Notes: a model not told the origin generated them from the letters alone. A stretch of DNA of 64,000 nucleotides from Blastocatellia bacterium (GCA_963765045.1 CAVXVF010000003.1:171488-235487), one strand, 5' to 3'. Numbered from the stretch's first letter, positions 34,515-49,848 are shown. Made by a program: numbers and translations.

Positions 34515-36029
34515 ATGGCCTTTTCCGATCTGTACAAAAAAGCAGTCTATTTCGTTATCTTCGCGGGGATTATCACGCTTGTCCTCATCCTTCTCCCGTT
34601 TGTCGAACAAGCGCTTCAGAATTACGTTTTGTCACAATTCGGTTTAGCGATCTCGCCGGAAGGCAATGTCGTCGGGACTGACGGCGAATCGCCGAGTATG
34701 ATGACCGCGACGTCGATCGGCCTCATAATCAACCTTTTTCATATCGCCAAGATTTTGTTGTGGATGGCCCTGATCATTTCGACCGTCCGATTCCTTAGTC
34801 ATCTTATTTTTAAGACCGCGTTAAGAAACTCAAGCCAGTCCGAAATCTCATCGCTCGTTAGGACGGTCGTTTCGATAGTCGTTTACATCGTAGCTTTCTT
34901 TATTATTTTTCAGTCGCAATACCCGAACGTACAGCTTGCGCCTCTTTTCACCGGATCAACCATAATCGGAATTGTCGTCGGTCTCGCTCTACAGGACACG
35001 CTCGGTAATTTATTTGCGGGGATTGCCTTGCAGGCCGATCAGGCTTTTCAGGTCGGCGATGTGATTTCGATATCGAATAGAATGGGCGGCGTCGTTGAAA
35101 ACGTATCCTGGCGTGGGGTTAAAATCCGTACTTTTCAAAACAAGTTGCTTGTCCTGAGCAATTCGGTGATGGGAAAAGAAACGATCGAGGTAGCTCCGCG
35201 CGACAATCTGAATGCGCGGCTCGTTATATTCCATACGATTTATACCGATTCCCCTTCGCGTACGATCCAGGCGGTGCGGGAAGCCGTGCGGCAAGTCGAA
35301 AATGTCTCGCCAAAGATTCGCCCAGTTGTCAGGATGATGAATCTCGGCGAAAGCGGTATTGATTGGGAAGTTAAATACTGGGCGGAGGATTATTCAAAGT
35401 TCAATGATACCGACGCCTTGATAAGACAGCGTATCTGGTATGTTTTTAACCGCGAAAAGATCGGTTTCCCATTCCCGACGCGAACAGTTCATATGGCGGC
35501 CGTGCCGGAAAAGGTAACGCTGGATGAATATCTTAACGCGACCTCCGAGCTGCTCAGTGAAATCCCTATATTCGCTCCGCTTTCCGAAGAAGAACTTGAA
35601 AAGCTCGCCGCCGCGTCAAAGGTCCGGATTTATGCTCCCGGTGAAGCGATCGTAAGACGCGGGCAGGAAGGAAACTCGATGTTCGTGATAACGCACGGGG
35701 CGGTTGAAGTTCAGATTCTGATCGCGGGAGAAGCAAAAACCATCAATACGCTTCGCAACAGCGATTACTTCGGCGAAATGAGTCTGCTTACCGGAGAGCC
35801 GCGGACCGCAACCGTCGTCGCCGTCGAAGAAACCGAGGTAATCCAGATAAATAAAACCGCTCTCAAACCAATTTTCGAGGCAAACCCCGAACTTGTTAAG
35901 TCGGTCTGCGACCTGATCGAAGAGCGTCGCTTGCTTCTAAGCACCGGCGTCGAGGAACAGGAAAAAGACGAAAAGAAACGCGACAAAGGCGTGCTCACTT
36001 CAATCCGAAACTTCTTCGGCCTCAAATAG
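34515..36029 (+). CDS. MscS-family mechanosensitive channel fused to a C-terminal cyclic-nucleotide-binding domain
   Basis: MscS core GNLFAGIALQADQAFQVGDVI. The cNMP domain is FGEMSLLTGEPRTATVVA. Confidence 0.85.
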   Translation: MAFSDLYKKAVYFVIFAGIITLVLILLPFVEQALQNYVLSQFGLAISPEGNVVGTDGESPSMMTATSIGLIINLFHIAKILLWMALIISTVRFLSHLIFKTALRNSSQSEISSLVRTVVSIVVYIVAFFIIFQSQYPNVQLAPLFTGSTIIGIVVGLALQDTLGNLFAGIALQADQAFQVGDVISISNRMGGVVENVSWRGVKIRTFQNKLLVLSNSVMGKETIEVAPRDNLNARLVIFHTIYTDSPSRTIQAVREAVRQVENVSPKIRPVVRMMNLGESGIDWEVKYWAEDYSKFNDTDALIRQRIWYVFNREKIGFPFPTRTVHMAAVPEKVTLDEYLNATSELLSEIPIFAPLSEEELEKLAAASKVRIYAPGEAIVRRGQEGNSMFVITHGAVEVQILIAGEAKTINTLRNSDYFGEMSLLTGEPRTATVVAVEETEVIQINKTALKPIFEANPELVKSVCDLIEERRLLLSTGVEEQEKDEKKRDKGVLTSIRNFFGLK

Positions 36030-36105
36030 TCAAAACCGCGAGCGGTAGCGACCGGCCTCCTAATTCTTTGCTCCTCCTTTTCTTTCTTCTTCCTCCTCCC
36101 CTTAC

Positions 36106-36131
36106 GTGGTTAAGATTTATTGTCGGATCAC
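36106..36131 (+). repeat. Degenerate copy of the 'gtggttaaga..ccgaccac' hairpin element
   Basis: gtggttaagatttattgtcggatcac. The first ~12 nt match the copies at 37491 and 49670; the rest has diverged. Confidence 0.4.
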
Positions 36132-36347
36132 AAAAATAAACCTGCAAACGATTTGACTTTTAAAAAATTGAGATTACTGTCTCACCAACTTCTGTAAAAC
36201 TAGAAAAGAATTTGTTTGTTTTCAGTCACGATTATGACTGTTGTTTCCCGCAACGAATCATTTTTTGAGTTCAGAAACGCTGGACGATTTGGCCTGTAAA
36301 GGCTCTAATCGTCGGCGTTTTTTATTTTTTGATACCAAAGGAACATT

Positions 36348-37448
36348 ATGTCCAAAAAGAAAAGAAATGAGCAGAGTCTGAACCCGGCCAACAAAAAGCT
36401 TTCGGCGACAAAAGCGAATAAAGCCCTAATCAAGATCGGGCTGATTGTCGGAATATTGTTGTTCGTATTGGTCGGATTTGGAGCGTTCGTGAGCCGGCAA
36501 AACTCGACTGAAAACATTGCGTCGAGTTCCGCCAATCCACCCGCGCCATTGCCGACTCCGCAATACGCGGCAAACGCTCCAGCCAAGGAATTTTTGTACG
36601 CAGGCAGCAAATTACTGGCCGTATCTGAACCAGTTCAGCCCGCTCCGAATGACCTTGCCGTATGGCGGCTTTCGACCGGAGAGTGGTTCGTAATGGGAGA
36701 ATCCGGAGGCATCACTCAGCAAGTCTGGGGGGTGTCTACTGACAAACCTGCACCCGGCGATTTCGACGGCGACGGCAAGACCGATTTCTGCGTATTCCGG
36801 CCAAGCGAAGGCAAATGGTACATCGTACAATCGGGTACGAATACCTCTAATACACTCACTTTCGGCGTAAACGGAGACATCCCTGTTCCTGCGGATTTCG
36901 ATGGCGACAGCCGTACCGATTTGGCACTGTACCGGCCGAGCAATCAGACCTGGTACATCAAGCACATGGCCTCCGGCAATATCGTGACTCGCCAATATGG
37001 GAATAGCACCGACAAACCGCTGCCGAGCGATTTTGACGGCGACGGCAAAGCCGATATCGCCCTTTGGCGAAACAGCAACGCAACCTGGTATGTCTGGAAG
37101 AGCAGCACCAACTCGGGATCGAGCCTTGTGTGGGGCGCGAGCGGCGATAAACCGGTGCCCGGAGATTTCGACGGTGACGGCAAGACCGATCATGCCGTTT
37201 GGAAAAGCACTAACCTTTGGAGCATCCGCCGCAGTTCGAACGGCACGACAATGACCGCTACATGGGGCTTCCAGGCAAGCGATATTTCCGTTCAGGGCGA
37301 TTATGACCGGGACGGCAAATCCGACGTCGCCGTCTGGCGTCCGTCAAACGGCACCTGGTACATCGTTAAATCGAGCAACGGAACTATTCGCACCCAGGTC
37401 TGGGGCCAAAACGGAGACATCCCCGTCCCGACGCCGTACCGAAGATAG
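36348..37448 (+). CDS. Membrane-anchored FG-GAP/VCBS-repeat (beta-propeller-like) protein
   Basis: N-terminal TM (IKIGLIVGILLFVLVGFGAFV), then about six or seven ~44-aa repeats of D-K-P-x-P-G-D-F-D-G-D-G-K-T-D-x-x-x-[WFY]-R-P-S-x-x-x-W-Y-[IV]. Confidence 0.8.
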   Translation: MSKKKRNEQSLNPANKKLSATKANKALIKIGLIVGILLFVLVGFGAFVSRQNSTENIASSSANPPAPLPTPQYAANAPAKEFLYAGSKLLAVSEPVQPAPNDLAVWRLSTGEWFVMGESGGITQQVWGVSTDKPAPGDFDGDGKTDFCVFRPSEGKWYIVQSGTNTSNTLTFGVNGDIPVPADFDGDSRTDLALYRPSNQTWYIKHMASGNIVTRQYGNSTDKPLPSDFDGDGKADIALWRNSNATWYVWKSSTNSGSSLVWGASGDKPVPGDFDGDGKTDHAVWKSTNLWSIRRSSNGTTMTATWGFQASDISVQGDYDRDGKSDVAVWRPSNGTWYIVKSSNGTIRTQVWGQNGDIPVPTPYRR

Positions 37449-37459
37449 CGTCGCGTTTG

Positions 37460-37536
37460 TTCCTCTTGTTCGTTCTTGTTCTTCTTCATAAGTGGTTAAG
37501 ACTTAAATCCGACCACGGAACAAGATGAACAAGACC
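37460..37536 (+). repeat. Long imperfect hairpin element with conserved core agtggttaagacttaaatccgaccacgga (37491-37519)
   Basis: Core stem gtggt/accac. The flanks (cttgttc-rich on the left, gaacaag-rich on the right) are mutually complementary. The 29-nt core matches 49670-49698 at 27/29 positions in the same orientation. Confidence 0.7.
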
Positions 37537-37606
37537 GTAAAAGAAACAGAAAGAAGTTAAAAAAATTGCTCGTGGCGAATTAACCACAGCAAAACATTAT
37601 CTCAAA

Positions 37607-40600
37607 ATGATCCCGGAGAAAACGACCATGACCCGATTCAATAAAGCCGCTGACCAAATCCTGAAAGTAAGAAGCATTCAAGTACCTTCCCGACAATTTT
37701 CAGCAATTTTGCTGTTATTTGCTGTGTTGATGCCGATCACCGCGCCGATACCCGCTTGGGCATACAACCTGAACTTGCCGCCGGCGGCTGTCGATGACGG
37801 ATTGCGGTTAACCGCTTCTGGAGAGCATTTTAAAAACTCAATCAGCGATTTTCTGTCGAAGCTGACGAGCGACCCTGCTGCGTTGGTTACGACATCCGCC
37901 GGTGAAAATATAGACAAGGAATCTACATATTCATCGACAGCGTTGGAAAAGCGAGTTGCGGACATAAAGACGGAATTACATGACGGAGAAGTGATAGAGG
38001 TTGGACAGAAGATTTCATTGGCCGCTCGACCGATAGACAAAAAAGGCCTAATTATAAATGGTATCGCCGCTGAGTGGAGCTGTACCAATTCAAAAGTGCT
38101 CCGCATTTTGAACGATTCGGAAGCCGTAGCTATCGCGGAAGGCGAAGCGAAGCTTGTCGTACGTTCGGGGAATGTCATCAGAGAAGTGAGATTTAAAGTC
38201 AACAAGAGAGCTAGAAACGGTGCGAGACCTGTATCGTCCATGCTTGAGCCGCCGGAAATGCCTGTCATTACCGAGCAGCAAGTCGAAAATCTCGTTACCC
38301 CGGAAAATAATCTTGGCAATCCAATTGGACAAACAGAAATGGGTTCGCGGTCCGCGTCAGCGGCACTAAGAACGCGGGAGCGGTTCGGAAGCTCGAATTT
38401 CAGTTTTGATATTCCGGCGGCATCGCTGCCAGGTCGGGGAATCGATGCCTCAGTCGGAATCACATACAACAGCCGCATATGGAATAAGGCGTCATTTGGC
38501 GGAACGGATGTCTATACTTTTAACACGGATGGGAGTTGGCTGGCTCCGGGCTTTGAGATGGGATTTGGCGAGTTGACTCCATACGGATCGGGTACCGTAA
38601 GTGGCTACATGCTTACAAGTCCTGACGGCTCGAGACATCAACTGATTTACAAACAGGCGTCGGGTCAATGTTCGATTTTTGAATCGGCTGATGGGACGTT
38701 TATCGAAACCACGATCTGTGGTATTTATACGACCTCAACCTTGAACGTTGTTTTTCCGGACGGGACACAGGTGATGTATGGTGCGTCTACCGCTTCCGGA
38801 AAACGTTTTCCAATCCGAATTACCGACCGCAACGGCAACATGCTTACCATTGCGTATGTGCAAAACGACACTCAAGGCAAGATTTCGTACATCCGCGATA
38901 CTTTGAACCGGTATATCAATTTCTACTACGACACGCCTGATAATAAGCTGGTGGCGATCACCGTTCCGGGTTTTGACGGCGGTGCCGAACGGCAAACGAT
39001 CAGGTTTTATTACGCTGACATGACTTTCAACTGGATCGGGCGATTTGACGGCACGGTAAATGCCCCGACCACCGTTAAGGTCCTGAAGTATGTATATTTC
39101 CCAGGCACGCAAACAGGTTTTAAATACGATTATTCGCCGTATTTCGGAATGATTCACAAAATCTGGCAAATGCGCGGAATGCTGGTGAGCAGCAACAGCA
39201 CAACCGATACCGGTACTGTTACAAGCGAAGGAACATGGGCCGCATGGACAAGTTACAATTACCCGACAACTCCAGTCCCGACTCTGACTGACGTTCCAAA
39301 ATACACTCAGCGGACCGATGATTGGCTGGGCCGAACGAGCGCCGTTCCACAGACAAATTTCTCAATCAGCGAAGACGTGACACCGGCGGGTTGCGATATA
39401 AGCACCGGAGCCTGCACTGGCACGCGAAACGTCACGGTTACGGCGCCGGACGGCACAAGAAGTATTTCGGTTTCGAAGATAAGACCTTCAATCGATTGGG
39501 AAAACGGTCTGTTGCAGGAAACCAGAATCGAGACCGGCGCGGTCGGGTCGGAAGTAGTTTGGTCTAAGACAAAGCTCTTTTGGGAACAAGGAGCGGGCAG
39601 CACATTGCCCGGTCGAGATAATCCTCGTCTGGACAAAATCGAGGTTACGAACGACGCCAACCAGACAAGAGCAACAACCTTCGATTACGACAATTACAAT
39701 AATCAAACCGTTGTACGGGAACATGATTTTGCCGCGCCAAATAGTGAAGGAACCGAACTAAGAAGAACCGAGACGACGTATGAGACAGGGCTAGGGTGGA
39801 CAAACAATCGGCTTCTTCGCCTGCCCAAAGAGATAAAGACGATCGTCGGCACGGCGACCGTTTCTAAGACCGCTTACGAATATGACAAGAACGGCGAAGC
39901 AGCGGAGACCGCACTCACTCCGAGGCTAGATATTTCCGCTAGCGTGCATGATATAAGATACGACCCCTCGGCGCCGTCGGGACAGCAGTGCGCTCCGCAA
40001 TGCGAGGAGCCGCATCGTTGTTGTTGGACGGTTCACGTTTATCAGGCTTATACGCGGTTTCGCGGAAACGTAACAAAGATCACGGCGTTTTCGGATGCGA
40101 CGCTGGCAAGTGACCCGAACGCTTCGGTTTCGACGGTGAAATATGACATCGCCGGAAACGTAACGGAATCATCGTCAAGCTGCTGCGAACTGAAAACAAC
40201 GCAGTATTCGAACACGAATCACTATGCCTATCCGATGTCCGAAACACGCAACGGGCAGGGATTATCGTTAACCACGAGCGCGACTTACGATGTGCCGACC
40301 GGTTTTGTAAAAACCGCGACGGATGAGAACAATCAGACATCCATGCTGACCTACGACCCTAACAATTTGCGAGTCATCAGAAGCGACGGTCCGGTTGGAA
40401 CGGGCATCTGGTCAACGACGGAGTATAATGATTCGGTGTTTCCTTATCATGTAAAAACGACAAGCAGTCTGGACGCGACGCGGAGTGTATCGGCGTGGAG
40501 TTTTTCAAACGGGCGCGGACAAGGGTTTAGAAGCCGGAGCCAGACAACGGGAGGATATCTTTCGAGCGAGGTCGAATTTGACGTAATGGGTCGTGCCGAG

Positions 40601-43105
40601 AAGAGTTACAATCCGCACACGGTTACCAGTCTGACGGCCGCCCTTCCGACCGGAATAAAATTCTCGCGTATTACATCGCTTGACGGTTTGGGGCGGACGC
40701 TATCGACGACGCTGCCGGATAACACAATTGTCACGGCTACTTACAGCGGTCTTGTGGCGACCGCAACCGATCAGGCTGGAAAACAAAGAAGGCAAATAGC
40801 CGATGCTCTCGGCAGAACTGCGCGTGTCGACGAACCTGATGCGACGGGAAATCTCGGCTTGGTAACTTCGCCGGTTCAACCGACATTTTACGAATACGAC
40901 GGGAACGATAATCTGACAAAAGTTACGCAGTCGATACCGGGCGTGGTGACGCAGGAAAGATTGTTCAAGTACGACAGCCTTTCGCGATTGACACACGAAA
41001 AGCAGGTCGAGGCGAATGCGACGCTCGACAACAACGGCGTCAAGGTCGGGGCGGGCGGCCAGTGGACGGGCGTTTATAAGTACGACTTGGACAGCCTGCT
41101 GGTTGAAGGTTTCGATGCCCGCGGCGTGAAAACGGCGTTTACTTATGACGGTTTGAACCGTGTCAAAACGATTGCATACACCGGCGAGACGGGCTATCAG
41201 ACGCCGACGGCGACTTATACTTACGACGAGACGGAAACCAATTTCTTCAACAACGGGCGGCTGACGAAAGTTCAAACGGCGGCGAATGCCACATACGGAA
41301 TACCGGAGACAATCCAGAATTATCGGTATGACAAAATCGGGCAGGTGACAAAGCACGTCCAAAACATCGGTAATCAGAGTTATCAGCTTGAGTATGGATA
41401 CAATCTGGCCGGACAGTTAATTTCAGAGAAATATCCGTCAGGAAAGATCGTCAATATGACGGTCGATAATTTCGGACGGCTTTCGACGGTTGCGGACGCA
41501 CAGAGGACTTATCTGAGCAGTGTTGGTTTCAACAATCAGGGTCTGCTGTCGCAGATGAATCTGGGTAATGGAACTTCTGAAACGTTTTCTTACAATGACC
41601 GTTTTCAGATGACTTCGCAGAGTTTAAATAAGGGCGCTGAGGTTTTGCAGAAGTATGATTATTCTTACGGCACGGTCGATCTGGCAACAGGAACGGTTAA
41701 TACGCAAACCAATAATGGTCAGCTTTCCAAAATAGAAGGCTGGATAGGTGCCAACAAGCAGTGGAGCCAGAGGTTTGGTTATGACGAGCTTGGCCGATTA
41801 AAAGAAGCCCGCGAGTACAAGCAGGGGGTGAATACTCAGCTTACATACAAACAGGTGTTCGATTTCGACCGTTTCGGGAATCTCTATCGTAAAGCGGCGA
41901 GCAACCCAACGGCGGGTCAGCAGAATCCGCTTACATACACGCCTATCGAAGATGCCCACATTGACAGGGCCAAAAACCGTCTGACAACCGGAACGACCTA
42001 TGACGACGCCGGACAGGTTGTGAATGATACGAAGTTTCGTTCGATGTCGTTCGCCTATGACGCGAACGGCCATCAGGTGAAAGCTATGAGAGCCAGCGTC
42101 CCCGACGCGTGGACGGTTTATGACGCACTCGGAAACAGGGTTGCCACGAAGATCAACGACATCTGGCAATACATGGTTTATGATGCGTTTGGCAAATTAG
42201 TTGCTGAATACGGCGTCGCTTCCGAAACTCTCGGCGGCGTTAAATATCTACAACAAGATTGGCAGGGTTCAGTTCGCACTACGACCAATTCAAACGGTTT
42301 CGTGGTTGCGAGGACAGATCATCAAGCCTTTGGTGACGATGTCGGTTACGGAGTCGGGTTGCGTTCAATCGAGCAGGGATATTCGGTAGGAAAGGTTGCA
42401 AAACAAGGTTACGGTTTAACCGAGAATGATCAAGGTTCTGGACAGCAGCATACTTGGTTTAGGAAACTCGAAACCTCCGCCGGAAGATGGACGGGGCCTG
42501 ATCCGTATAAAGGGTCGATGTCGCTCGGCAATCCGCAATCGTTTAACCGGTATTCTTATGTTGAGAATCAGCCGACAAACTTTGTCGATCCGAGTGGGCT
42601 TTTCATAGTAGCGATTTGTTCTTTTGTTGGCACCTTCATTATCAATTTTGATACTCGTTGGCAGCAAACTGTGGATGTATATTTATGTACCATTATCGAC
42701 TTCGGTGGGGGCGGCCCAATCTTTCCCGTAGAACCTACATCTGGCGGTGGGGTGGGCGAACCTCAATTCGTCAATGCCAAGTTCGACGATGAGTACAAAA
42801 ATTACGATGCGTGCGTTAAAGCTGAAAATCAAAAATGTTTGAACAAAGGCCGTAAAAATTTCAATGAAAATGCTGTGTGGGATGCAGCTTCTTTACCGTT
42901 TACTGGAGGTGCGGGTATTATTTACGCGATGATCAAAAGCGCCGCTCTATGGAGCGCCCGCCTCGCTTTTGGTGCGATTGGAATAGGCGGAGGAATTGCT
43001 CTCGGTCTTTACAGGGCAGCACAGAGAGCGCAAGGGGTTGAGAATGATTGCAAGGAAGAAGTTCCAGCCAAATGTAAAGAATATAAGAGGAGTAACGTGG
43101 CATGA
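37607..43105 (+). CDS. RHS/YD-repeat polymorphic toxin, full length (1832 aa)
   Basis: N-terminal hydrophobic segment FSAILLLFAVLMPITAPIPAWA and a Big_2-like Ig domain (~aa 125-200). Many YD repeats (YDIAGNVTES, YEYDGNDNLTKV, YDSLSRLTHE, YDGLNRVKT, YDELGRLKEA, YDDAGQVVND, YDALGNRVAT, YDAFGKLVAE). The core ends with NQPTNFVDPSGL (Asp codon at 42587), followed by a 167-aa unique tip. Confidence 0.93.
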   Translation: MIPEKTTMTRFNKAADQILKVRSIQVPSRQFSAILLLFAVLMPITAPIPAWAYNLNLPPAAVDDGLRLTASGEHFKNSISDFLSKLTSDPAALVTTSAGENIDKESTYSSTALEKRVADIKTELHDGEVIEVGQKISLAARPIDKKGLIINGIAAEWSCTNSKVLRILNDSEAVAIAEGEAKLVVRSGNVIREVRFKVNKRARNGARPVSSMLEPPEMPVITEQQVENLVTPENNLGNPIGQTEMGSRSASAALRTRERFGSSNFSFDIPAASLPGRGIDASVGITYNSRIWNKASFGGTDVYTFNTDGSWLAPGFEMGFGELTPYGSGTVSGYMLTSPDGSRHQLIYKQASGQCSIFESADGTFIETTICGIYTTSTLNVVFPDGTQVMYGASTASGKRFPIRITDRNGNMLTIAYVQNDTQGKISYIRDTLNRYINFYYDTPDNKLVAITVPGFDGGAERQTIRFYYADMTFNWIGRFDGTVNAPTTVKVLKYVYFPGTQTGFKYDYSPYFGMIHKIWQMRGMLVSSNSTTDTGTVTSEGTWAAWTSYNYPTTPVPTLTDVPKYTQRTDDWLGRTSAVPQTNFSISEDVTPAGCDISTGACTGTRNVTVTAPDGTRSISVSKIRPSIDWENGLLQETRIETGAVGSEVVWSKTKLFWEQGAGSTLPGRDNPRLDKIEVTNDANQTRATTFDYDNYNNQTVVREHDFAAPNSEGTELRRTETTYETGLGWTNNRLLRLPKEIKTIVGTATVSKTAYEYDKNGEAAETALTPRLDISASVHDIRYDPSAPSGQQCAPQCEEPHRCCWTVHVYQAYTRFRGNVTKITAFSDATLASDPNASVSTVKYDIAGNVTESSSSCCELKTTQYSNTNHYAYPMSETRNGQGLSLTTSATYDVPTGFVKTATDENNQTSMLTYDPNNLRVIRSDGPVGTGIWSTTEYNDSVFPYHVKTTSSLDATRSVSAWSFSNGRGQGFRSRSQTTGGYLSSEVEFDVMGRAEKSYNPHTVTSLTAALPTGIKFSRITSLDGLGRTLSTTLPDNTIVTATYSGLVATATDQAGKQRRQIADALGRTARVDEPDATGNLGLVTSPVQPTFYEYDGNDNLTKVTQSIPGVVTQERLFKYDSLSRLTHEKQVEANATLDNNGVKVGAGGQWTGVYKYDLDSLLVEGFDARGVKTAFTYDGLNRVKTIAYTGETGYQTPTATYTYDETETNFFNNGRLTKVQTAANATYGIPETIQNYRYDKIGQVTKHVQNIGNQSYQLEYGYNLAGQLISEKYPSGKIVNMTVDNFGRLSTVADAQRTYLSSVGFNNQGLLSQMNLGNGTSETFSYNDRFQMTSQSLNKGAEVLQKYDYSYGTVDLATGTVNTQTNNGQLSKIEGWIGANKQWSQRFGYDELGRLKEAREYKQGVNTQLTYKQVFDFDRFGNLYRKAASNPTAGQQNPLTYTPIEDAHIDRAKNRLTTGTTYDDAGQVVNDTKFRSMSFAYDANGHQVKAMRASVPDAWTVYDALGNRVATKINDIWQYMVYDAFGKLVAEYGVASETLGGVKYLQQDWQGSVRTTTNSNGFVVARTDHQAFGDDVGYGVGLRSIEQGYSVGKVAKQGYGLTENDQGSGQQHTWFRKLETSAGRWTGPDPYKGSMSLGNPQSFNRYSYVENQPTNFVDPSGLFIVAICSFVGTFIINFDTRWQQTVDVYLCTIIDFGGGGPIFPVEPTSGGGVGEPQFVNAKFDDEYKNYDACVKAENQKCLNKGRKNFNENAVWDAASLPFTGGAGIIYAMIKSAALWSARLAFGAIGIGGGIALGLYRAAQRAQGVENDCKEEVPAKCKEYKRSNVA
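41225..42601 (+). repeat. rhs core segment duplicated in the two downstream orphan cassettes
   Basis: Colinear with 43681-45060 (with a one-codon length difference) and, from ~41390 onward, with 46378-47620. Includes an 80-nt perfect match, 42413-42492 = 44872-44951. Confidence 0.9.
42602..43102 (+). other. RHS C-terminal toxin domain 1 (unassigned; glycine-zipper-like hydrophobic segment)
   Basis: Sequence after DPSGL: FIVAICSF..VYLCTIIDFGGGGP..GGGVGEP..YDACVKAENQKC..GGAGIIYAMIKSAALWSARLAFGAIGIGGGIALGLYRAA. I recognise no catalytic motif. Confidence 0.7.
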
Positions 43106-43539
43106 TTTCTAAGTCTAAATACTCGTCAAAAGATTTTATCCAAGATGTCGCCGTTGCAGCTTTGATTACGACGATGTGTATGCTGGCATTTTTGCGGCGG
43201 GATTATTTGTATGGATCCCAAGATTACGATGGTATCGTATCTGTGTTTTTTTATGTGGGAATTGGGCTAAAAATCATTTTTGTAATAGGCTCCCTTTATT
43301 TACTATTGAGGTTGCAATACCCACAGAGTTTAGTTGCCGGAATAGTTTTGGTCGGTTGCTGGCTGCTTGCTGAATGTTTCCCGAATTCCGTATCAGTTTT
43401 ATTCTTAAAAGAACTGAATGACGTTTTCGGGTATTTTGGGGGCGTATTTATTTACCCGATTTGGCGGTGGCAGAGGCTAACGAACACCAATGCGGAGGTC
43501 TTGGACGACAAACCCACTACTTTGAATTTGAATAACTAG
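43102..43539 (+). CDS. Putative immunity protein 1 (4-TM membrane protein)
   Basis: The ATG overlaps the rhs stop (ATGA). 145 aa with about 4 hydrophobic helices, AT-richer than the flanking sequence. Confidence 0.65.
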   Translation: MISKSKYSSKDFIQDVAVAALITTMCMLAFLRRDYLYGSQDYDGIVSVFFYVGIGLKIIFVIGSLYLLLRLQYPQSLVAGIVLVGCWLLAECFPNSVSVLFLKELNDVFGYFGGVFIYPIWRWQRLTNTNAEVLDDKPTTLNLNN

Positions 43540-43568
43540 AGTGCAGGGGATATGTGAAGGAGCGTTTG

Positions 43569-43680
43569 TATCCTCATTCGTTCAATCTCATCTAGGCTGA
43601 TGGCGTCGCTCGTGCGGTCGTAAAGCTTTGTTGTTCGGGACTAGCATGGGCGGCTATTTCCTGCTCGTAACTGTAAAAAC
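43569..43680 (-). pseudogene. 3' remnant of a tyrosine recombinase/integrase gene (frameshifted and 5'-truncated at the orphan rhs junction)
   Basis: The minus strand reads ..EQEIAAHASP (frame a), then, one missing base later, RTTKLYDRTSDAISLDEIERMRI (frame b). From memory, this matches the conserved C-terminus (..AAHESPRTTKLYDRT.D.I.LDE.ERI.I) of a family of site-specific integrases. Confidence 0.5.
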
Positions 43681-45060
43681 GACGAGACCGAGAGCGGTTT
43701 CCACAACAACGGGCAGTTGACAAAAGTTCAAACGGCGGCGAATGCCACATACGGAATACCGGAGACAATACAGAATTATCGTTACGACAAAATCGGACAG
43801 GTTACAAAGCATGTTCAGACCATCGGCAATCAGAGTTATCAGCTTGAGTATGGATACAACCTCGCCGGACAGTTGGTGAGCGAGAAGTATCCGAGCGGCA
43901 AGATCGTCAACATGACGGTCGATAATTTCGGAAGATTGCAAACTGTCGCCGACGCACAGCGGACTTATCTGAGCAGTGTCGGTTTCAACAATCAGGGTCT
44001 GCTGTCGCAGGTGAATCTCGGCAACGCAACGAGCGAAACTTTTTCGTACAATGACCGTTTTCAGATGACTTCCCAGAGCCTGAATCGCGGTTCGGAAGTT
44101 TTGCAAAAATATGATTATTCTTACGGCACGGTCGATCTGGCAACAGGAACGGTTAATACACAAACCAATAATGGTCAGCTTTCCAAAATAGAAGGTTTTA
44201 TCGGAGCAAACAAGCAGTGGTCGCAGCGGTTCGGTTACGACGAGCTTGGGCGCTTGAAGGAAGCGAGAGAGTACAAGCAGGGCACGAATACTCAACTAAC
44301 TTACAAACAGGTGTTCGACTTCGACCGCTTTGGGAATCTCTATCGAAAGAACGCAAGCAACCCAACCGCAGGGCAGCAGAACCCGCTTATATACACGCCG
44401 ATTGAGAATGCGGACATAGATAAAACTAAAAATCGTCTCACAACCGGAACAACTTACGACGATGCCGGACAGGTTGTGAATGATACGAAGTTTCGTTCGA
44501 TGAGTTTTGCCTACGACGCAAATGGCCGTCAGGTCAACTCTACGAACTCTATAAACTCTACGAACGCTCAAACAGTCTATGACGCACTTGGAAACAGAGT
44601 CGCCACGAAGATCAACGACATTTGGCAGTACATGGTCTATGACGCTTTCGGGAAATTGGTTGCTGAATACGGCACGGCGAGCGAAGGTCTCGGCGGTGTG
44701 AAGTACGTTCAGCAGGACTGGCAAGGCAGTGTCAGAACCGTGACAAATAACAACGGCTTCGTGGTCGCCCGAACGGATCACCAGGCATTCGGCGGCGAAG
44801 TCGGTTACGGAACCGGGCAACGCTCCGTCGAACAAGGCTACAACGTCGGTAAGGTTACAAAACAAGGCTACGGTTTAACCGAGAATGATCAAGGTTCTGG
44901 ACAGCAGCATACTTGGTTTAGGAAACTCGAAACCTCCGCCGGAAGATGGACAGGTCCCGATCCGTACAAGGGTTCAATGTCGCTTGGCAATCCACAGTCG
45001 TTTAATCGATATTCTTACGTTGAAAACCAGCCGACGAATTTTGTTGATCCAAGTGGATTA
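43681..45060 (+). repeat. rhs core copy within orphan cassette 1
   Basis: DETESGFHNNGQLTKVQTAANATYGIPETIQNYRYDKIGQVTKHVQ... parallels main-gene aa ~1207-1665. Confidence 0.9.
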
Positions 45061-45714
45061 CTCTACATCTTATATTGCACATATATTGGATACATGGCCG
45101 ATATGCCCGGTTTTCCAAGTGTGTATTCTTGCCATTTGGTGGAAATTGGCGGCGGCGGCATCGGTGGTCCTAGGGAGCCGCCTGTTCACGGCGGCGGTGT
45201 TGGCAGCGGCGGCAGAGAGACACCACCAGTCGATAGCGATTGTGAAAAATTTGCCAAGTTAGTTGGTGAAATCGCCAAGAGTGCTAAAAATGCCAAAGAT
45301 TTTGCGGATCAGATGGCTAAAAGATTTCTTGGCGTTAACGGAGCCTCATTGAGTGAATTACGCAGGGCGAATGAGGTTGGCGGTGGTGAATCGTTTGGTA
45401 GCTCGGGATTCAAAGAGCAATTTCAGGGGCCTGGCAATCAGGTGCGACACTTTACAGGAGGCCTGATCGGTGGTTACTTGTTTGGAGCAACGGGCGGCGA
45501 TTGGGGAATGTGGTTTGGGGAGGACGACCCAGAGGATATTGCGCTTAATGCGGTTAGCAGTGCTTTAGGAGCCAGAATAGTGGACCCTACGCCTGCGACG
45601 ACAAAGGAGGTTTCCGGTGGGTACAGAAGCGAAATGAGACGTATCGTAAATGTCCCTGCCAATCCTGGATATACTGATTTGGCGGATCGTATTAGGAAAC
45701 AAGTCTGTGAATAA
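43717..45714 (+). CDS. Orphan RHS C-terminal cassette 1 (core fragment plus 217-aa toxin tip 2); no canonical start
   Basis: The in-frame homology begins at 43681, just after a TAG at 43642. Only a TTG (43717) is available as a start. The core ends NQPTNFVDPSGL (Asp at 45046), then a unique tip contains ..GFKEQFQGPGNQVRHFTGGLIGGYLFGATGGDWGMWFGEDDPEDIALN... Confidence 0.8.
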   Translation: MTKVQTAANATYGIPETIQNYRYDKIGQVTKHVQTIGNQSYQLEYGYNLAGQLVSEKYPSGKIVNMTVDNFGRLQTVADAQRTYLSSVGFNNQGLLSQVNLGNATSETFSYNDRFQMTSQSLNRGSEVLQKYDYSYGTVDLATGTVNTQTNNGQLSKIEGFIGANKQWSQRFGYDELGRLKEAREYKQGTNTQLTYKQVFDFDRFGNLYRKNASNPTAGQQNPLIYTPIENADIDKTKNRLTTGTTYDDAGQVVNDTKFRSMSFAYDANGRQVNSTNSINSTNAQTVYDALGNRVATKINDIWQYMVYDAFGKLVAEYGTASEGLGGVKYVQQDWQGSVRTVTNNNGFVVARTDHQAFGGEVGYGTGQRSVEQGYNVGKVTKQGYGLTENDQGSGQQHTWFRKLETSAGRWTGPDPYKGSMSLGNPQSFNRYSYVENQPTNFVDPSGLLYILYCTYIGYMADMPGFPSVYSCHLVEIGGGGIGGPREPPVHGGGVGSGGRETPPVDSDCEKFAKLVGEIAKSAKNAKDFADQMAKRFLGVNGASLSELRRANEVGGGESFGSSGFKEQFQGPGNQVRHFTGGLIGGYLFGATGGDWGMWFGEDDPEDIALNAVSSALGARIVDPTPATTKEVSGGYRSEMRRIVNVPANPGYTDLADRIRKQVCE

Positions 45715-45786
45715 TCAAGGGCGAATTTTGCTTCGTTCCCGGTGTTGATATGCCAAATTTAGTGCAGTAATTCGTTCGAGGTGTTT

Positions 45787-46341
45787 ATGTTCGGGAAAAA
45801 ACTTTCAATCGTATTGTTCGGATGCTTGGTTTTTAGTTCTTGCGGCAAAGGCTACGACACTAAAAAGGTTGTTGAGTCTTGGGAGACAGGAAATCAACAG
45901 TTAAAAATCCGTGTTGCATCATATCCAGAAAATATCCATCTTCTTTATGGGGGAGCATATTATGTTTTTGAGTCATCTAGAAATGGCGAATGGGTAGAGA
46001 TTATGACTGTTAGGCATGATGATCTGACTCCTATTGACAAAAATGGCGTGAAATTCGTTAACGAAAATATTTGCTATGTTTATTCGGGTTCGGGGTTTGC
46101 TGTTACTACGGATGTTGGGAATACGTGGACTCTATGGGATGGTCGGGAACATAATTACTTGGATAAAGAGGTTGAATATGGCGTGATAACAAAGATAGAA
46201 ATCCGAAGCGATGGTCAGGGTGAAATGATCGTATGGGTATTTGCACCCAACAAGAATGATTGTCAAACGGTATTGACAAGCGACTACGGACAAACTTGGG
46301 TGAACGGTAATTTACTTGACAAAGGTAAATGTTCTCTCTAG
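45787..46341 (+). CDS. Putative immunity protein 2: lipoprotein with BNR/Asp-box motifs
   Basis: Lipobox VFSSCGKG and two Asp-box-like S/T-x-D-x-G-x-T-W motifs (TTDVGNTW, TSDYGQTW). Located directly after toxin tip 2. Confidence 0.6.
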   Translation: MFGKKLSIVLFGCLVFSSCGKGYDTKKVVESWETGNQQLKIRVASYPENIHLLYGGAYYVFESSRNGEWVEIMTVRHDDLTPIDKNGVKFVNENICYVYSGSGFAVTTDVGNTWTLWDGREHNYLDKEVEYGVITKIEIRSDGQGEMIVWVFAPNKNDCQTVLTSDYGQTWVNGNLLDKGKCSL

Positions 46342-48214
46342 TTTTGCGCGAAAAAAAACGCCTTGGATAGATGCACAGCAATACAATCTTGAGTACGGCT
46401 ACAATCTGGCCGGGCAATTGATTACGGAGAAATATCCTTCTGGAAAGATCGTCACAACGAGCTATGATGCGAACGGCAGATTGTCGGGCGTCGCCGATCC
46501 TTCTCGGACTTATCTGAGCGGTATGCAGTATTTGGGCAAGGGCAATTCGGTCAGCCAGATGACGCTTGGCAACGGAACGGTTGAGAACTATACGCTTAAC
46601 GACCGTTTTCAAATGACCGGACAGGAGTTGAAACGCGGCACCGAGGTTCTGCAAAAGTACAATTACGGTTATGGCGAGATCGACGGTTCGGGGAATCTTG
46701 TTACGACAAAAAATAACGGTCAGCTTGGAAGAATAGAAAGCTACATCGGCACGGCAAAGCAATCGACGCAGAAGTTTCTTTACGATCACATTGGCCGTTT
46801 GAAAGAATCGGCCGAATATCGCGGTGATAACAATAGTCTGACTTACAAGCAGAAGTTCGATTTTGACAGGTTTGGGAATCTTTATCGGAAAGCCGCGAGC
46901 AACCCAACGGCGGGACAGGCGAATCCATTGGCTTACACTCCGATTGAAGAGACGACGACACCGGGAACGGGCGATATCGAAAAGTCGACGAATCGATTCC
47001 GCACCGGCACGACGTATGACGATGCTGGGCAAGTTGTCGCGGATAATAAATTCCGTTCGATGAACTTTGCCTACGACGCGAATGGCCGTCAGGTCAACTC
47101 TACGAACTCTACAAACTCTACGAACGCTCAAACCGTCTATGATGCGAGCGGAAACAGAGTTGCGACAAAGATCAATAACATCTGGCAGTATATGATCTAC
47201 GACGCCTTCGGAAAACTTGTGGCCGAATACGGCGTAGCGTCAGAAGGCGTGGGCGGAGTAAAATATCTCCAGCAGGATTGGCAAGGCAGCGTGAGAACCG
47301 TAACAAACAATAATGGATTTGTCGTCGGAAGAACGGATCACCAAGCTTTTGGTAATGACGTGGGATACGGAGTCGGGCAACGCTCGGTCGAGCAGGGCTA
47401 TTCGGGTGGTAAAGCTACTCGACAGGGCTATGGATTGACCGAACGCGACGACGCGACGGGACAAGATCACACGTGGTTCAGAAAGAACGAAAACCTCGCC
47501 GGACGCTGGACAAGTCCCGATCCTTATAATGGCTCGATGTCCCTCGGCGACCCGCAGAGTTTCAACCGGTACAGTTATGTCCAAAGTGATCCAACGAATT
47601 TCGTTGATCCGAGTGGGTTGCAAATGGCAATTTGTTATATCGACGGATTCCAGGCAAACTGCAGCACGGCGTTTCACTTGGTGCAATCGGGTGGCGGCTA
47701 CGTCAGTTGGCACAGCGTCGATTGGTTGACGGTTGTCAACGAATACACCCTGATTGATGACCGCTGGACGCGTACTGGTCAATATCTTCATTTTAATCCT
47801 TTATACAATTTTAACCCAGAGGGCAATCTTGGTCCTCGTGGTGGTGGCGGCGGTAACAAAAATAATTCTGAAGATGATTTCTCGGATTGTCGAGATGAAG
47901 TCAGGGCGGAATTTATGTCGGATATATTTGCCGCAAGTGATAAATTTAATAAAGCTAATTCTGACCACATTCTGGATCCGGCATCTCTGAAAACTGCGGC
48001 CCTCGGAATCGTTGGTCTGGCGGGAGGTATTCTTTTCAGGTCTCCGTCGTCACTGTTGAGTGGCTTGGCTGCTTTGTCTTGGGTTCAGGGTGCTTCTTAC
48101 GTCAATTTATATACTCTAGCAAAAGATGTTTGGAAAGCGTATAGGAAAGAAAGAAAGCAGATGGCTAGATGCACACCGATTTTGATCAATAAAAGTAGAA
48201 GTGTTTCGGTATGA
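46316..48214 (+). CDS. Orphan RHS C-terminal cassette 2 (core fragment plus 197-aa toxin tip 3); no canonical start
   Basis: Homology to the main core starts ~46378 (YNLEYGYNLAGQLITEKYPSGKIV). The track ORF begins at a TTG that overlaps the preceding gene. The core ends SDPTNFVDPSGL (Asp at 47606), followed by a unique tip. Confidence 0.8.
   Translation: MTKVNVLSSFARKKTPWIDAQQYNLEYGYNLAGQLITEKYPSGKIVTTSYDANGRLSGVADPSRTYLSGMQYLGKGNSVSQMTLGNGTVENYTLNDRFQMTGQELKRGTEVLQKYNYGYGEIDGSGNLVTTKNNGQLGRIESYIGTAKQSTQKFLYDHIGRLKESAEYRGDNNSLTYKQKFDFDRFGNLYRKAASNPTAGQANPLAYTPIEETTTPGTGDIEKSTNRFRTGTTYDDAGQVVADNKFRSMNFAYDANGRQVNSTNSTNSTNAQTVYDASGNRVATKINNIWQYMIYDAFGKLVAEYGVASEGVGGVKYLQQDWQGSVRTVTNNNGFVVGRTDHQAFGNDVGYGVGQRSVEQGYSGGKATRQGYGLTERDDATGQDHTWFRKNENLAGRWTSPDPYNGSMSLGDPQSFNRYSYVQSDPTNFVDPSGLQMAICYIDGFQANCSTAFHLVQSGGGYVSWHSVDWLTVVNEYTLIDDRWTRTGQYLHFNPLYNFNPEGNLGPRGGGGGNKNNSEDDFSDCRDEVRAEFMSDIFAASDKFNKANSDHILDPASLKTAALGIVGLAGGILFRSPSSLLSGLAALSWVQGASYVNLYTLAKDVWKAYRKERKQMARCTPILINKSRSVSV
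46378..47620 (+). repeat. rhs core copy within orphan cassette 2
   Basis: More diverged than copy 1, but colinear through to DPSGL. Confidence 0.85.
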
Positions 48215-48353
48215 CTCTGAAATCCAGGATTAACTTGGGTTATCCATTTTAGCGTGGCACTTTATTAAATAGTTGAACCAGAACCTATCGCTGGTCAGTT
48301 TTTGAACCGAATATGGAGTAATTTTGTACAAATCCCTGAAAAAGGTCACCATC

Positions 48354-48641
48354 ATGTACGGCCTGAAAAATGATATGCGAATAATAAAGCAGATTAATAG
48401 GATTCAAGAGTTATTGTTTACATCTCCGTCTAAGATTCCCCAAATCTTTCACATGTATCCATCTCTATTATTGTTGATCGGTATAAGTATTTTAGGGACG
48501 TCGGCCCTTGGATTCTTTTGGGCAATAGGCCATGAAAAAAATATCATTCTCTTCGCTTTGTCTATTGTCTTATTCTTGTTAAGCATTTCAATTCTGATTT
48601 CGTATTGGCGAATTTACCATTGTAAGCATCCAGTAAAATAG
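48354..48641 (+). CDS. Putative immunity protein 3 (2-TM membrane protein)
   Basis: MYGLKNDMRIIKQ... with helices YPSLLLLIGISILGTSALGFFWAI and IILFALSIVLFLLSISILISYW. AT-rich, and lies downstream of toxin tip 3. Confidence 0.55.
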   Translation: MYGLKNDMRIIKQINRIQELLFTSPSKIPQIFHMYPSLLLLIGISILGTSALGFFWAIGHEKNIILFALSIVLFLLSISILISYWRIYHCKHPVK

Positions 48642-48721
48642 TACCAGACAGAATTACCGTTTCCGTTCAGAATAGGAAGGAAAATGACGAGGAGTAAGAT
48701 CCGTATTCGAAACATTGCCGT

Positions 48722-49657
48722 TCATTGGACATTCTTGTCGTAGATGTCGTGAAGAACTTCGGTGATGGGCTTGCGGTCGGCGAACGGGTCTTTCTTTAGT
48801 TTTTTCGAATTGTTCTTTTCTTCGTGTCGATGGGAAGCCCCGGAAGTTCTCGCTGTAGCTTTGTCGAAGGCTTCGAACGTAGTGTCGGTCACGCTTCGCC
48901 GTGGCTGGACTTGCGAGTGTTCGGGAAGAACCTGAACGTCGTTGAGATCAGTGTTTTGAGAGCCATTAGTGTGCGTGTTCTTCGCGTAAATAGTGCGGCT
49001 TTCTTCGAGAAGAGCTTTGCCGCGAAGCTTACGGGCACGTTCCAAAGCGCGGATAGATGCAGATGTCAGCGGAGCATCGGCCGGATCGCGTTCGATCTTC
49101 CGTAGCACCTTTACATAATTTCTCAGCTCCGGCGATGGATAAACGTAGGAGGTCTCGTTGGCAGTATCATTTTCGATGACGTGCGAAAGGCAGTTGATGG
49201 CGGACTGATGATCGCCGGCTTTGTGGTAAAGAGCTCCGAGCGCGAAATAGACTAGCGGCGGAGCACCGCTCATCCTGTTCAATATCGCCTCACCACGGGC
49301 GATCGAATCCTTTATTTCAAAACCGAACCAGTTGCGGCCGTCATCACGGAGCATTTCGTTGGCGGACAGATAAAATTCGAAGATGTCGCGGGTCTCGTTC
49401 CTCGTGCCCGATGCGAACATCTTGAATAGGAAATAAGCGAAAACTCCGAAAAAGAAGATAACAAACACCGGAAAGCCCGCCACCAAAAGCATCGACGCGA
49501 CAACGCCAAAGGCAATGAAATATTGACCTTTTTCCTTTATCGAACCAGGTGCTTTTTTTTGTATCTTGTTCTCGTTCACAGATAATAAGTGCAGTCCAAA
49601 AAATTGAGTCAAGCGAATCTGACGGAAATATTCTTTCGTCTTGTTCATCTGTTCCAT
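48722..49657 (-). CDS. Hypothetical membrane protein with TPR-like helical domain
   Basis: 311 aa. TM pair (YFIAFGVVASMLLVAGFPVFVIFFFGVFAYFLF) and a helical C-terminal part. Its first codons lie inside the left arm of the 49640-49716 hairpin element. Confidence 0.55.
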   Translation of the reverse strand: MEQMNKTKEYFRQIRLTQFFGLHLLSVNENKIQKKAPGSIKEKGQYFIAFGVVASMLLVAGFPVFVIFFFGVFAYFLFKMFASGTRNETRDIFEFYLSANEMLRDDGRNWFGFEIKDSIARGEAILNRMSGAPPLVYFALGALYHKAGDHQSAINCLSHVIENDTANETSYVYPSPELRNYVKVLRKIERDPADAPLTSASIRALERARKLRGKALLEESRTIYAKNTHTNGSQNTDLNDVQVLPEHSQVQPRRSVTDTTFEAFDKATARTSGASHRHEEKNNSKKLKKDPFADRKPITEVLHDIYDKNVQ

Positions 49658-49716
49658 TTCATCTTGATCAGTGGTTATGATTTAAATCCGACCACGGATC
49701 AAGAGGAACGGAACGA
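49640..49716 (+). repeat. Long imperfect hairpin element with core agtggttatgatttaaatccgaccacgga (49670-49698)
   Basis: tcttgatc(a)gtggt...accac(g)gatcaaga forms an extended stem. The core matches 37491-37519 at 27/29 positions. Confidence 0.7.
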
Positions 49717-49848
49717 AAAAGAGGGTTTGAACGGCTTTGGCTTAAATTCTTTTTTGAATTTTCATAAGTACCCATGAGTAGATCCCCTTTCCAGACATTA
49801 CTCGCCAGCTCGCGGCTTTGATTCGCTCTTTAGTAATGTCCTATTGCC

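Follow-up and report, generated by a model that had tools for sequence, protein, structure and literature searches.

A candidate membrane-acting RHS toxin tip with twin CX7C motifs, encoded beside a polytopic membrane protein in a Blastocatellia bacterium

Non-enzymatic, membrane-depolarising cargo is known for few rearrangement hotspot (RHS) proteins, chiefly Tse5. Here we describe the C-terminal tip (tip 1) of an RHS polymorphic toxin, and the small membrane protein encoded directly after it, in a 64,000-nt stretch of Acidobacteriota DNA from a Blastocatellia bacterium (GCA_963765045.1 CAVXVF010000003.1:171488-235487), called the window below, to whose positions the coordinates refer. Tse5-CT, the 149-aa tip of the P. 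aeruginosa protein RhsP1, is non-enzymatic, partitions into bilayers and depolarises cells, and is encoded beside Tsi5, an inner-membrane immunity protein with two transmembrane (TM) segments (PMC9637101, PMC10684867). Contact-dependent growth inhibition (CDI) ionophores of the CdiA-CT EC93 family dissipate the membrane potential, combining an entry or linker part with a helical membrane-spanning part; one of their helices carries a putative glycine zipper, some of their entry domains have predicted disulfides, and their CdiI immunity proteins are very hydrophobic (PMC11630599). EsxX, TelE and TspA are C-terminal glycine-zipper toxins on LXG proteins of type VII secretion systems (T7SS), which depolarise cells from the extracellular side and are countered by the polytopic membrane immunity proteins ExiCD and TsaI (PMC12744356), and the N-terminal GxxxG repeats of Tde1 permeabilise the target inner membrane and translocate a DNase domain (PMC10240207). 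Glycine-zipper membrane toxins form a motif class, not a homology family. The original prediction for this locus, made from the sequence alone, was that tip 1 is probably a membrane-acting glycine-zipper toxin paired with a membrane immunity protein, and every computational test reported here agrees with that interpretation. In our judgement tip 1 is probably a pore-former or ionophore that acts on the envelope and is stapled by disulfides, its immunity protein lying in the membrane, and represents the exchangeable toxin cassette of an Acidobacteriota RHS polymorphic toxin exported through Sec.

The RHS gene, open reading frame (ORF) 37607-43105, encodes 1832 aa, in which YD/RHS repeats are recognised by Pfam PF05593 (E 1.2e-14) and NCBIfam TIGR01643 (E 2.6e-8), and its core matches the Tse5 cage in the Protein Data Bank (PDB; 8cp6_B, 1121 aa) with an E value of 3.7e-5. 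The match to TIGR03696 (Rhs_assc_core) covers aa 1601-1665 and runs up to the final model position (76/76) at ...ENQPTNFVDPSGL, the C-terminal end of the core reading ...QPTNFVDPSGL in agreement with the consensus PxxxxDPxGL. Because the match stops at aa 1665, the tip comprises aa 1666-1832, that is 167 aa at 42602-43102, and the limits originally proposed for the tip and for the downstream ORF are reproduced, as is the hydrophobic stretch quoted at the time. The same DPxGL motif precedes the tips of both orphan RHS fragments that follow in the window and those of the toxin homologues; from established RHS biology, DPSGL is presumed to be the site of autoproteolytic release of the tip. At the other end of the protein, aa 1-52 (M1 to FSAILLLFAVLMPITAPIPAWA, with the break before Y53, ...PAWA/Y) read by eye as a Sec-type signal peptide. 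Repeats, core end, variable tip, adjoining candidate immunity gene and orphan fragments together give the gene the make-up of an RHS/YD-repeat polymorphic toxin.

Tip 1 (numbered 1-167) is not a single domain. Its length is as first described, but the first ~52 aa, then counted as part of the toxin, belong to a generic module common to unrelated tips, and the toxin domain proper consists of the remaining 115 aa (domain numbering 1-115, starting at tip aa 53). The generic layout, in which a short hydrophobic segment containing at least two Cys leads into a Gly/Pro linker of the form GGGG..P.EPP..GGGV, comes directly after DPxGL in the tips of the two orphan fragments (tips 2 and 3), in the tips of another contig, L001, and in the homologues P0016, P0017 and P0019, irrespective of the toxin attached. 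Besides the tip 1 copy, at 42602-42757, the module lies at ~45061-45220 and ~47621-47860 in the window, and likewise in the L001 tips, and pairwise BLAST similarity between the three window tips falls mostly within the shared linker region. This Cys hairpin and linker may be a common plug, release or entry module of the RHS lineage, and the start of tip 1, FIVAICSFVGTFIINF, is not regarded as a TM segment of the toxin because it is part of that module.

The toxin domain belongs to a genuine, very rare and uncatalogued family. HMMER, run exhaustively over 1.84 billion representatives at 50% identity, yielded seven matches, five of which were kept as true homologues, namely P0016 (E 5e-28), P0017 (4e-18), P0018 (8e-12), P0019 (8e-8) and P0022 (7e-4). 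In four of these five the domain immediately follows an RHS core that ends in DPxGL; P0022 is a degenerate orphan that keeps the Gly linker only. The other two matches were discarded: P0021 (2086 aa, 7 stretches) proved on inspection to be an unrelated repetitive protein, and P0020 (5830 aa, 16 stretches on the Gly-rich linker region) was treated, uninspected, as a probable low-complexity match. The exhaustive scan was needed because a word index misses most of the family, a word-indexed search of 5.8 billion clusters giving no match with the tip and P0022 only with the family profile (A1, an alignment of the window domain and the five homologues, which are 24-51% identical). Patterns drawn from the three closest members revealed no further relatives in 185,579 species-representative genomes or in metagenome contigs of the Joint Genome Institute (JGI); the genome that holds the window is evidently not one of those species representatives. 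No Pfam family, those of glycine zippers included, matches the tip or any of the six members at E<=0.1. The lone NCBIfam match of the tip (E 0.099) lies far below the cut-off of its model, and PHROGs returns nothing significant for the tip, two weak matches to holin families (E 0.04 and 0.23) reflecting a generic TM-like composition only. Against the PDB, the best match is at E 0.32 with the tip sequence alone and there is none at E<=10 with the family profile, and Foldseek finds nothing at E<=0.001 (best E 4.8). The 10.9-kb locus that holds P0018, L006, also carries a dense run of small unannotated ORFs with a weak Toxin_SdpC match and DUF1648 and DUF7689 proteins, and looks like a toxin/immunity island.

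The hallmark of the family, absent from the original prediction, is a twin CX7C cysteine ladder and not the zipper. Nine residues are invariant in A1 (C19, E23, C27, G31, F35, N38, G72, C98 and C106, in domain numbering), among them the four Cys of an invariant CX7C...CX7C arrangement with 70-85 residues between the two motifs. The homologue P0018 has acquired one further Cys at either end, spaced as mirror images (CX3CX7C...CX7CX3C), as would be predicted for a disulfide ladder between antiparallel helices (C22-C95, C14-C103, C10-C107). Binding of Zn by the four Cys was considered and judged less likely than disulfides, which are favoured because the protein would be Sec-exported, because the spacing is helical (i, i+8), and because of the mirror-image Cys of P0018.

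The region between the two motifs is hydrophobic and rich in Gly and Ala (28-36% G+A), and is divided into two halves by a turn with R or K, a residue that is present in all six members just N-terminal to invariant G72. The first half (helix B) keeps polar Y56 and K60, with N/T in most homologues, together with L64-W65. In the window this Gly/Ala-rich stretch, part of a domain conserved in five independent homologues, consists of helix B GGAGIIYAMIKSAALWS, the basic turn ARL, helix C AFGAIGIGGGIALGLY and then RAA. Its mean Eisenberg hydrophobicity is 0.5-0.63 with a low hydrophobic moment, and its Kyte-Doolittle maximum over 15 residues is 1.79; over domain residues 38-88 (18-residue windows starting at 38-71) the Eisenberg mean is 0.34-0.63, mostly >0.5, again with a low moment. 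The central segments are thus Gly-rich, borderline TM segments. The strict pattern GxxxGxxxG, GIGGGIALG at tip aa 127-135, fits the zipper definition (G/A/S)xxxGxxxG or GxxxGxxx(G/S/T) (PMC12744356) and occurs in the window domain, P0016, P0017 and P0018, with GxxxG in P0019 and TxxxA in P0022 in its place. The zipper motif alone proves nothing, and the evidence lies in its conservation in context. An AlphaFold2 (AF2) model of the toxin domain from the six-sequence alignment is all-helical, with a pLDDT (predicted local distance difference test) score of 58 and block means of up to 75 in its best-scored parts; the best-scored helices, 16-44 and 79-106, bear the CX7C motifs, and the hydrophobic centre holds two short ones (52-60 and 63-70).

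Searches of Pfam, NCBIfam, PHROGs and PDB sequences and with Foldseek gave no enzyme-like family, motif or fold for the tip or any homologue, which bears out the original observation that the tip has no motif like those of nucleases, deaminases or ADP-ribosyltransferases. Outside the hairpin and the Cys helices, the remaining sequence appears too short for a catalytic domain. This bears on the possibility that the hairpin is a translocation device carrying a minimal toxic element into the target cytoplasm, as suggested by Tde1, whose glycine zipper is needed for crossing the target membrane and not for DNase toxicity (PMC10240207). Such a role is improbable for tip 1, in which only two ~30-residue charged helices accompany the hairpin, the invariant residues are mainly Cys, and an enzymatic domain is not detectable; four invariant Cys, moreover, favour an oxidising compartment over the cytoplasm, and cytoplasmic toxins are not known to use polytopic membrane immunity proteins.

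A polytopic membrane protein of 145 aa is indeed encoded directly downstream. Its ATG, at 43102 within gcATGAtt, overlaps the stop codon of the RHS gene by 4 nt (ATGA). The protein has strong hydrophobic segments at ~13-31, 44-70 and 75-100 and a weaker, aromatic and Gly-rich one at ~107-123, so that its description as a 4-TM protein is reasonable, the fourth segment being weak in the window copy and clear in the homologues. An AF2 model (alignment A4; pLDDT 53) is all-helical, with helices at 9-37, 40-70, 75-92, 97-109 and 112-134. The pairing itself is conserved: four of the five toxin homologues have an ORF of 144-168 aa directly after, or overlapping, the toxin gene, whose product has four hydrophobic segments in the same layout. 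The coupled ORF of the original prediction is thereby confirmed as a polytopic and conserved partner, with reservation as to the fourth TM segment in the window. In BLASTP comparisons the window protein matches that of L005 over its full length (E 5e-5), and the latter matches that of L006 (3e-10), so that three of the five downstream proteins are linked by pairwise similarity. No Pfam family matches the 145-aa protein or its homologues, NCBIfam and PHROGs give nothing significant, and a profile search with the immunity family returns near-duplicates of known members only. Common to the proteins of the immunity family (alignment A2) is an acidic C-terminal tail with [ST]L.[LI]N at its end (TTLNLNN, ISLDLNK, LTILILND, ISLNIRSEK). 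One 92-aa fragment of the family, P0027, is labelled Escherichia coli in NCBI; it is on a contig of 276 bp, is nearly identical to the metagenomic P0024 and P0026, and is probably an assembly contamination and not an E. coli gene.

The way in which the cassette has moved offers independent evidence that the toxin and the downstream gene belong together. The immunity protein is 100% identical on two other contigs, L001 and L002. On L001 (GCA_965193195.1), from a related strain, tip 1, with one F-to-L change, is carried by an RHS fragment truncated to 370 aa, and a different tip and a small 2-TM ORF lie upstream of that fragment. Over their shared length (L001 1361-4368, window 42049-45056) the two sequences are 96.3% identical, with the differences very unevenly distributed: the flanking core segments have diverged (91.5% and 94.9% identity), whereas the 1115 bp of tip, immunity gene and spacer differ at a single nucleotide. 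From this mosaic divergence it follows that tip and immunity gene behave as a single, recently exchanged unit whose limits are the DPSGL junction and the core homology of the next orphan, which is the classic pattern of RHS tip displacement. The two orphan fragments, 43717-45714 and 46316-48214, have 82% and 67% DNA identity to the main core and different tips (43679-45056 is 81.9% identical to 41223-42597), and the core of the first may serve as downstream homology arm for cassette exchange. Guanine-cytosine content falls from 0.506 in the core to 0.457 in the tip and 0.406 in the immunity gene, and the downstream boundary of the array is shared as well (L001 5892-7017 and window 48722-49831, 95%).

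These data also speak to the view that the cassette is inactive, a decaying or non-toxic RHS C-terminus followed by a membrane protein that is unrelated or accessory. Members of the family are extremely rare and mostly located on orphan fragments, and one homologue is without a partner gene; the window cassette, however, forms an in-frame fusion with a full-length RHS gene that encodes a signal, with ATGA coupling and a good Shine-Dalgarno sequence, nine invariant residues are kept across homologues 24-51% identical, the partner ORF recurs at four independent loci, and the cassette has recently been exchanged intact between strains. Inactivity appears very unlikely on this evidence; if the domain were inactive, it would be merely another uncharacterised RHS tip.

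As a pore-former or ionophore, tip 1 could work as follows. The tip would be released at DPSGL, the generic Cys-hairpin and Gly/Pro linker preceding the 115-aa helical toxin domain. The two charged CX7C helices would pair in antiparallel orientation and be stapled by disulfides C19-C106 and C27-C98 (domain numbering), forming a soluble stalk that remains on the oxidising, periplasmic side, while a helical hairpin of ~39 aa, rich in Gly and Ala and with a basic residue at its turn, would insert into the target cytoplasmic membrane, the basic turn possibly being pulled inwards by the membrane potential as in pore-forming colicins (PMC11630599). Self-association through the small-xxx-small (glycine-zipper) face of helix C would then give an ion channel or small pore, perhaps lined by helix B with its polar face (Y, K, N/T), through which proton-motive force or membrane potential would be dissipated. 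The 145-aa four-helix inner-membrane protein would be the cognate immunity protein, probably binding the hairpin in the producer's own bilayer and blocking insertion or oligomerisation.

Several observations weigh against this picture. Helix B bears conserved polar or charged residues (Y, K, N/T), and the Kyte-Doolittle maximum over 19 residues is 1.43 in the window domain and 1.12-1.73 in the family, where the usual threshold is ~1.6, which is borderline for classical TM helices. Both AF2 models are of low confidence (pLDDT 58 and 53), and the Cys-Cys geometry is a prediction from sequence spacing. The glycine zipper on which the original prediction relied is present in its strict form, but 19% of shuffles that preserve the composition of the tip also contain GxxxGxxxG, and two of the six members lack it. 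The immunity proteins resemble one another only weakly (13-24% identity), those of L003 and L007 being tied to the others by position and topology only, and the closest toxin homologue, P0016, has an opposite-strand transposase gene downstream and no partner gene, on a short contig (L004). The family as a whole is tiny, and statistics of conservation are thin.

Some of the same features could be accommodated by a receptor-dependent membrane toxin, in which the hairpin would dock on an inner-membrane protein or lipid carrier and jam or open it, and the immunity protein would mimic or shield the target. Class II bacteriocins and microcins act so on the mannose phosphotransferase system (Man-PTS) or SdaC. 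Hydrophobicity that is only moderate and the conserved polar residues of helix B (Y56, K60, N/T) would suit such a mode of action, for which the rigid, disulfide-stapled stalk could provide a recognition surface; a membrane immunity protein and the lack of an enzyme signature fit equally well here as under pore formation, and CDI ionophores need membrane proteins such as AcrB or YciB for membrane entry (PMC11630599). On the other side, the sequence points to no particular receptor, and a glycine-zipper face with a basic turn is more typical of self-assembling channels. The computations made here do not separate receptor docking from pore formation, and we regard docking as the less probable of the two, though a serious minority alternative.

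The remaining cargo of the array fits an action of tip 1 on the envelope side. Tip 2 is followed by ORF 45781-46341, whose product begins with a lipoprotein-like signal (MFGKKLSIVLFGCLVFSSCGKG), so that the candidate immunity protein of tip 2 would be periplasmic; Pfam gives no match for either tip 2 or the ORF. A second tip type, found at 46316-48214 and at L001 2-1045, has a hydrophobic centre rich in Ala and Gly, and a small 2-TM ORF comes after it (48324-48641, 105 aa, and L001 1065-1301, 78 aa, respectively); this is the architecture of tip 1 with homology undetectable, and probably represents a second type of membrane-acting cassette. A common origin of tip 1 and the tip 3-type tips, which share a hydrophobic centre and a membrane partner, was considered and rejected (hhalign of A1 and A5, probability 0.2%). 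On L001, 5095-5622 encodes a DUF4431 protein with a hydrophobic N-terminus that was read as a signal sequence. The toxin domains compared (window 42758-43102, ~45200-45711 and ~47860-48211; L001 2-1045 and 3029-5014) represent at least four unrelated types, and each has one Cys close to the start and a second close to the C-terminus, as in DSDC...KQVCE, FSDC...MARC, RARC...FNFC and ETDC...VECRQFR, which suggests that end-to-end disulfide clamping may be a general property of the cargo in this RHS array. Taken with the RHS signal peptide and the envelope-type immunity candidates, the terminal Cys suggest that the cargo both folds and acts within the oxidising envelope.

From this setting a more far-reaching reading can be drawn, though only tentatively, that tip 1 is both a new structural class of membrane toxin and part of a Sec-exported, envelope-dedicated RHS system of Acidobacteriota that is independent of a T6SS (type VI secretion system). 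The twin-CX7C disulfide ladder might then hold a helical hairpin whose distal hydrophobic half is the channel, and activity might depend on oxidative folding in the envelope by the Dsb proteins of producer or target, both of which we consider possible rather than likely. With similar doubt it may be proposed that all cargo of the array acts on the envelope, the tips being Cys-clamped and the immunity candidates being membrane proteins or bearing an export-type signal. If that holds, the system would represent a distinct way of bringing cargo into the periplasm of diderm targets.

Among the ORFs scanned between 27969 and 55636, no T6SS genes were recognised. Directly upstream of the RHS gene, 36348-37448 encodes an FG-GAP/VCBS-repeat protein with a hydrophobic N-terminus and a weak TcdB_toxin_midN match (E 0.0036), which could be a partner in the export or target binding of a T6SS-independent RHS protein. 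A DUF6079-family protein of 1166 aa (E 3.9e-16) is encoded on the minus strand at 52133-55636, a few kb downstream of the RHS array, and a neighbouring NRAMP protein falls into a cluster at >=90% identity with one from a Pyrinomonadaceae metagenome-assembled genome, which makes a member of the Pyrinomonadaceae the probable source of the DNA. A scan of 36000-49000 for promoters and terminators was uninformative, giving the same counts as shuffled sequence. The features of the locus are collected in Table 1.

Table 1. Features of the tip 1 cassette, its RHS gene and its counterparts; positions are those of the window unless a contig is named
Feature	Position	Strand	Basis or remark
RHS/YD-repeat scaffold, aa 1-1665	37607-42601	+	PF05593, TIGR01643, TIGR03696
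Last 553 bp of RHS core	42049-42601		91.5% identity to L001
DPSGL motif, aa 1661-1665	42587-42601	+	last residues of the TIGR03696 match
Tip, immunity gene and spacer, 1115 bp	42602-43716		1 nt different from L001
Hydrophobic hairpin with two Cys (FIVAIC...YLCTIIDF), then Gly/Pro linker GGGGPIFPVEPTSGGGVG, together the pre-toxin module (tip aa 1-52)	42602-42757	+	layout recurs with unrelated toxins
Toxin domain proper, tip aa 53-167, 115 aa	42758-43102	+	five true homologues; no Pfam, NCBIfam or PDB match
First CX7C, CVKAENQKC, domain C19-C27, N-terminal charged helix	42812-42838	+	invariant 6/6; AF2 helix 16-44
Gly/Ala-rich stretch GGAGIIYAMIKSAALWSARLAFGAIGIGGGIALGLYRAA, tip aa 102-140	42905-43021	+	hydropathy and alignment A1
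Glycine zipper GxxxGxxxGxxxA, GIGGGIALGLYRA, tip aa 127-139	42980-43018	+	motif scan
Second CX7C, CKEEVPAKC, domain C98-C106, C-terminal charged helix	43049-43075	+	invariant 6/6; AF2 helix 79-106
Shine-Dalgarno sequence GAGGAG	43087-43092	+	sequence reading; 9 nt 5' of the downstream ATG
Candidate immunity gene, 145-aa polytopic membrane protein	43102-43539	+	hydropathy, conserved adjacency
Spacer (43540-43678) and first orphan RHS fragment	43540-45714	+	re-uses main-gene core sequence, different tip
Following orphan core	43717-45056		94.9% identity to L001
ORF after P0022	L003 1500-1934		144 aa
ORF after P0017	L005 975-1421		148 aa
ORF after P0018	L006 5879-6385		168 aa
ORF after P0019	L007 757-1242		161 aa

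The concept of a membrane-acting RHS tip is itself unsurprising, and the interest of the cassette for the polymorphic-toxin field is that of a minimal, structurally constrained candidate membrane toxin from an under-studied phylum. The original prediction had called membrane-permeabilising RHS tips rare, and they are known for only few RHS proteins, but a precedent exists in Tse5 (PMC9637101). The present cassette is a very small (~115-aa) candidate for a second example, with no detected sequence similarity to the first, in which two predicted disulfides would fix the register of the flanking helices, making it an attractive minimal model for the storage of a hydrophobic toxin in an RHS shell, its insertion and its neutralisation by a membrane partner. 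It also illustrates that under-sampled phyla such as Acidobacteriota hold toxin/immunity families missing from Pfam and NCBIfam, and the array hints at an RHS system devoted to envelope targets without a T6SS.

Compared with the systems described at the outset, tip 1 shares with Tse5-CT and Tsi5 a small, apparently non-enzymatic Rhs C-terminal tip and an adjoining small integral membrane immunity protein. No sequence similarity to Tse5-CT was detected in the PDB comparisons, in which the Tse5 chain matched is the 1121-aa cage; the Tse5 toxin domain is reported as unresolved (PMC11630599). Delivery differs as well, Tse5 relying on PAAR, VgrG and the T6SS, whereas a Sec signal and the absence of T6SS genes from the ORFs scanned characterise the window, and Tsi5 has two TM segments where the immunity protein here has about four. 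CDI ionophores resemble tip 1 as C-termini of polymorphic toxins with a two-part layout, a zipper helix and a hydrophobic immunity protein, but they are delivered by CdiB/CdiA, begin at a VENN boundary and are predicted to form a five-helix bundle, in contrast to the RHS scaffold and DPxGL boundary of tip 1; no Pfam or profile link between them and the tip 1 family was found. With EsxX, TelE and TspA the likeness consists of a C-terminal glycine zipper and polytopic membrane immunity proteins, whereas those toxins are Gram-positive, have an LXG scaffold and no cysteine ladder, and show no detectable homology to tip 1. In Tde1 the zipper moves a DNase cargo, while tip 1 is without a cargo domain.

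Further parallels lie outside these toxin systems. Class II microcins and colicin V-type bacteriocins are Gly/Ala-rich hydrophobic polypeptides of ~90-110 aa with one or more disulfides, which attack the inner membrane from the periplasm and are countered by small membrane immunity proteins. Unlike tip 1, which is RHS cargo, they are secreted as free peptides that have leader sequences and depend on TonB for uptake, and the tip family has no Pfam match. Twin-CX9C (CHCH) proteins and the plant alpha-hairpinins (CX3C...CX3C) are antiparallel helix-loop-helix structures stapled by two disulfides between Cys pairs set at equal spacing on each helix; tip 1 shares with them the structural logic only, the biology being unrelated, and differs in its CX7C spacing and in an insert of ~70 residues that contains the hydrophobic hairpin. 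Membership of tip 1 in the known membrane-toxin families is thus not supported by the sequence comparisons, and tip 1 is best described as a new sequence family of a known kind of toxin, which by analogy would work like Tse5-CT and Tsi5, relatedness to them not being supported. What appears to set it apart is the invariant twin CX7C ladder, a T6SS-independent context with a Sec signal, an immunity protein with about four TM segments, and the phylum in which it is found.

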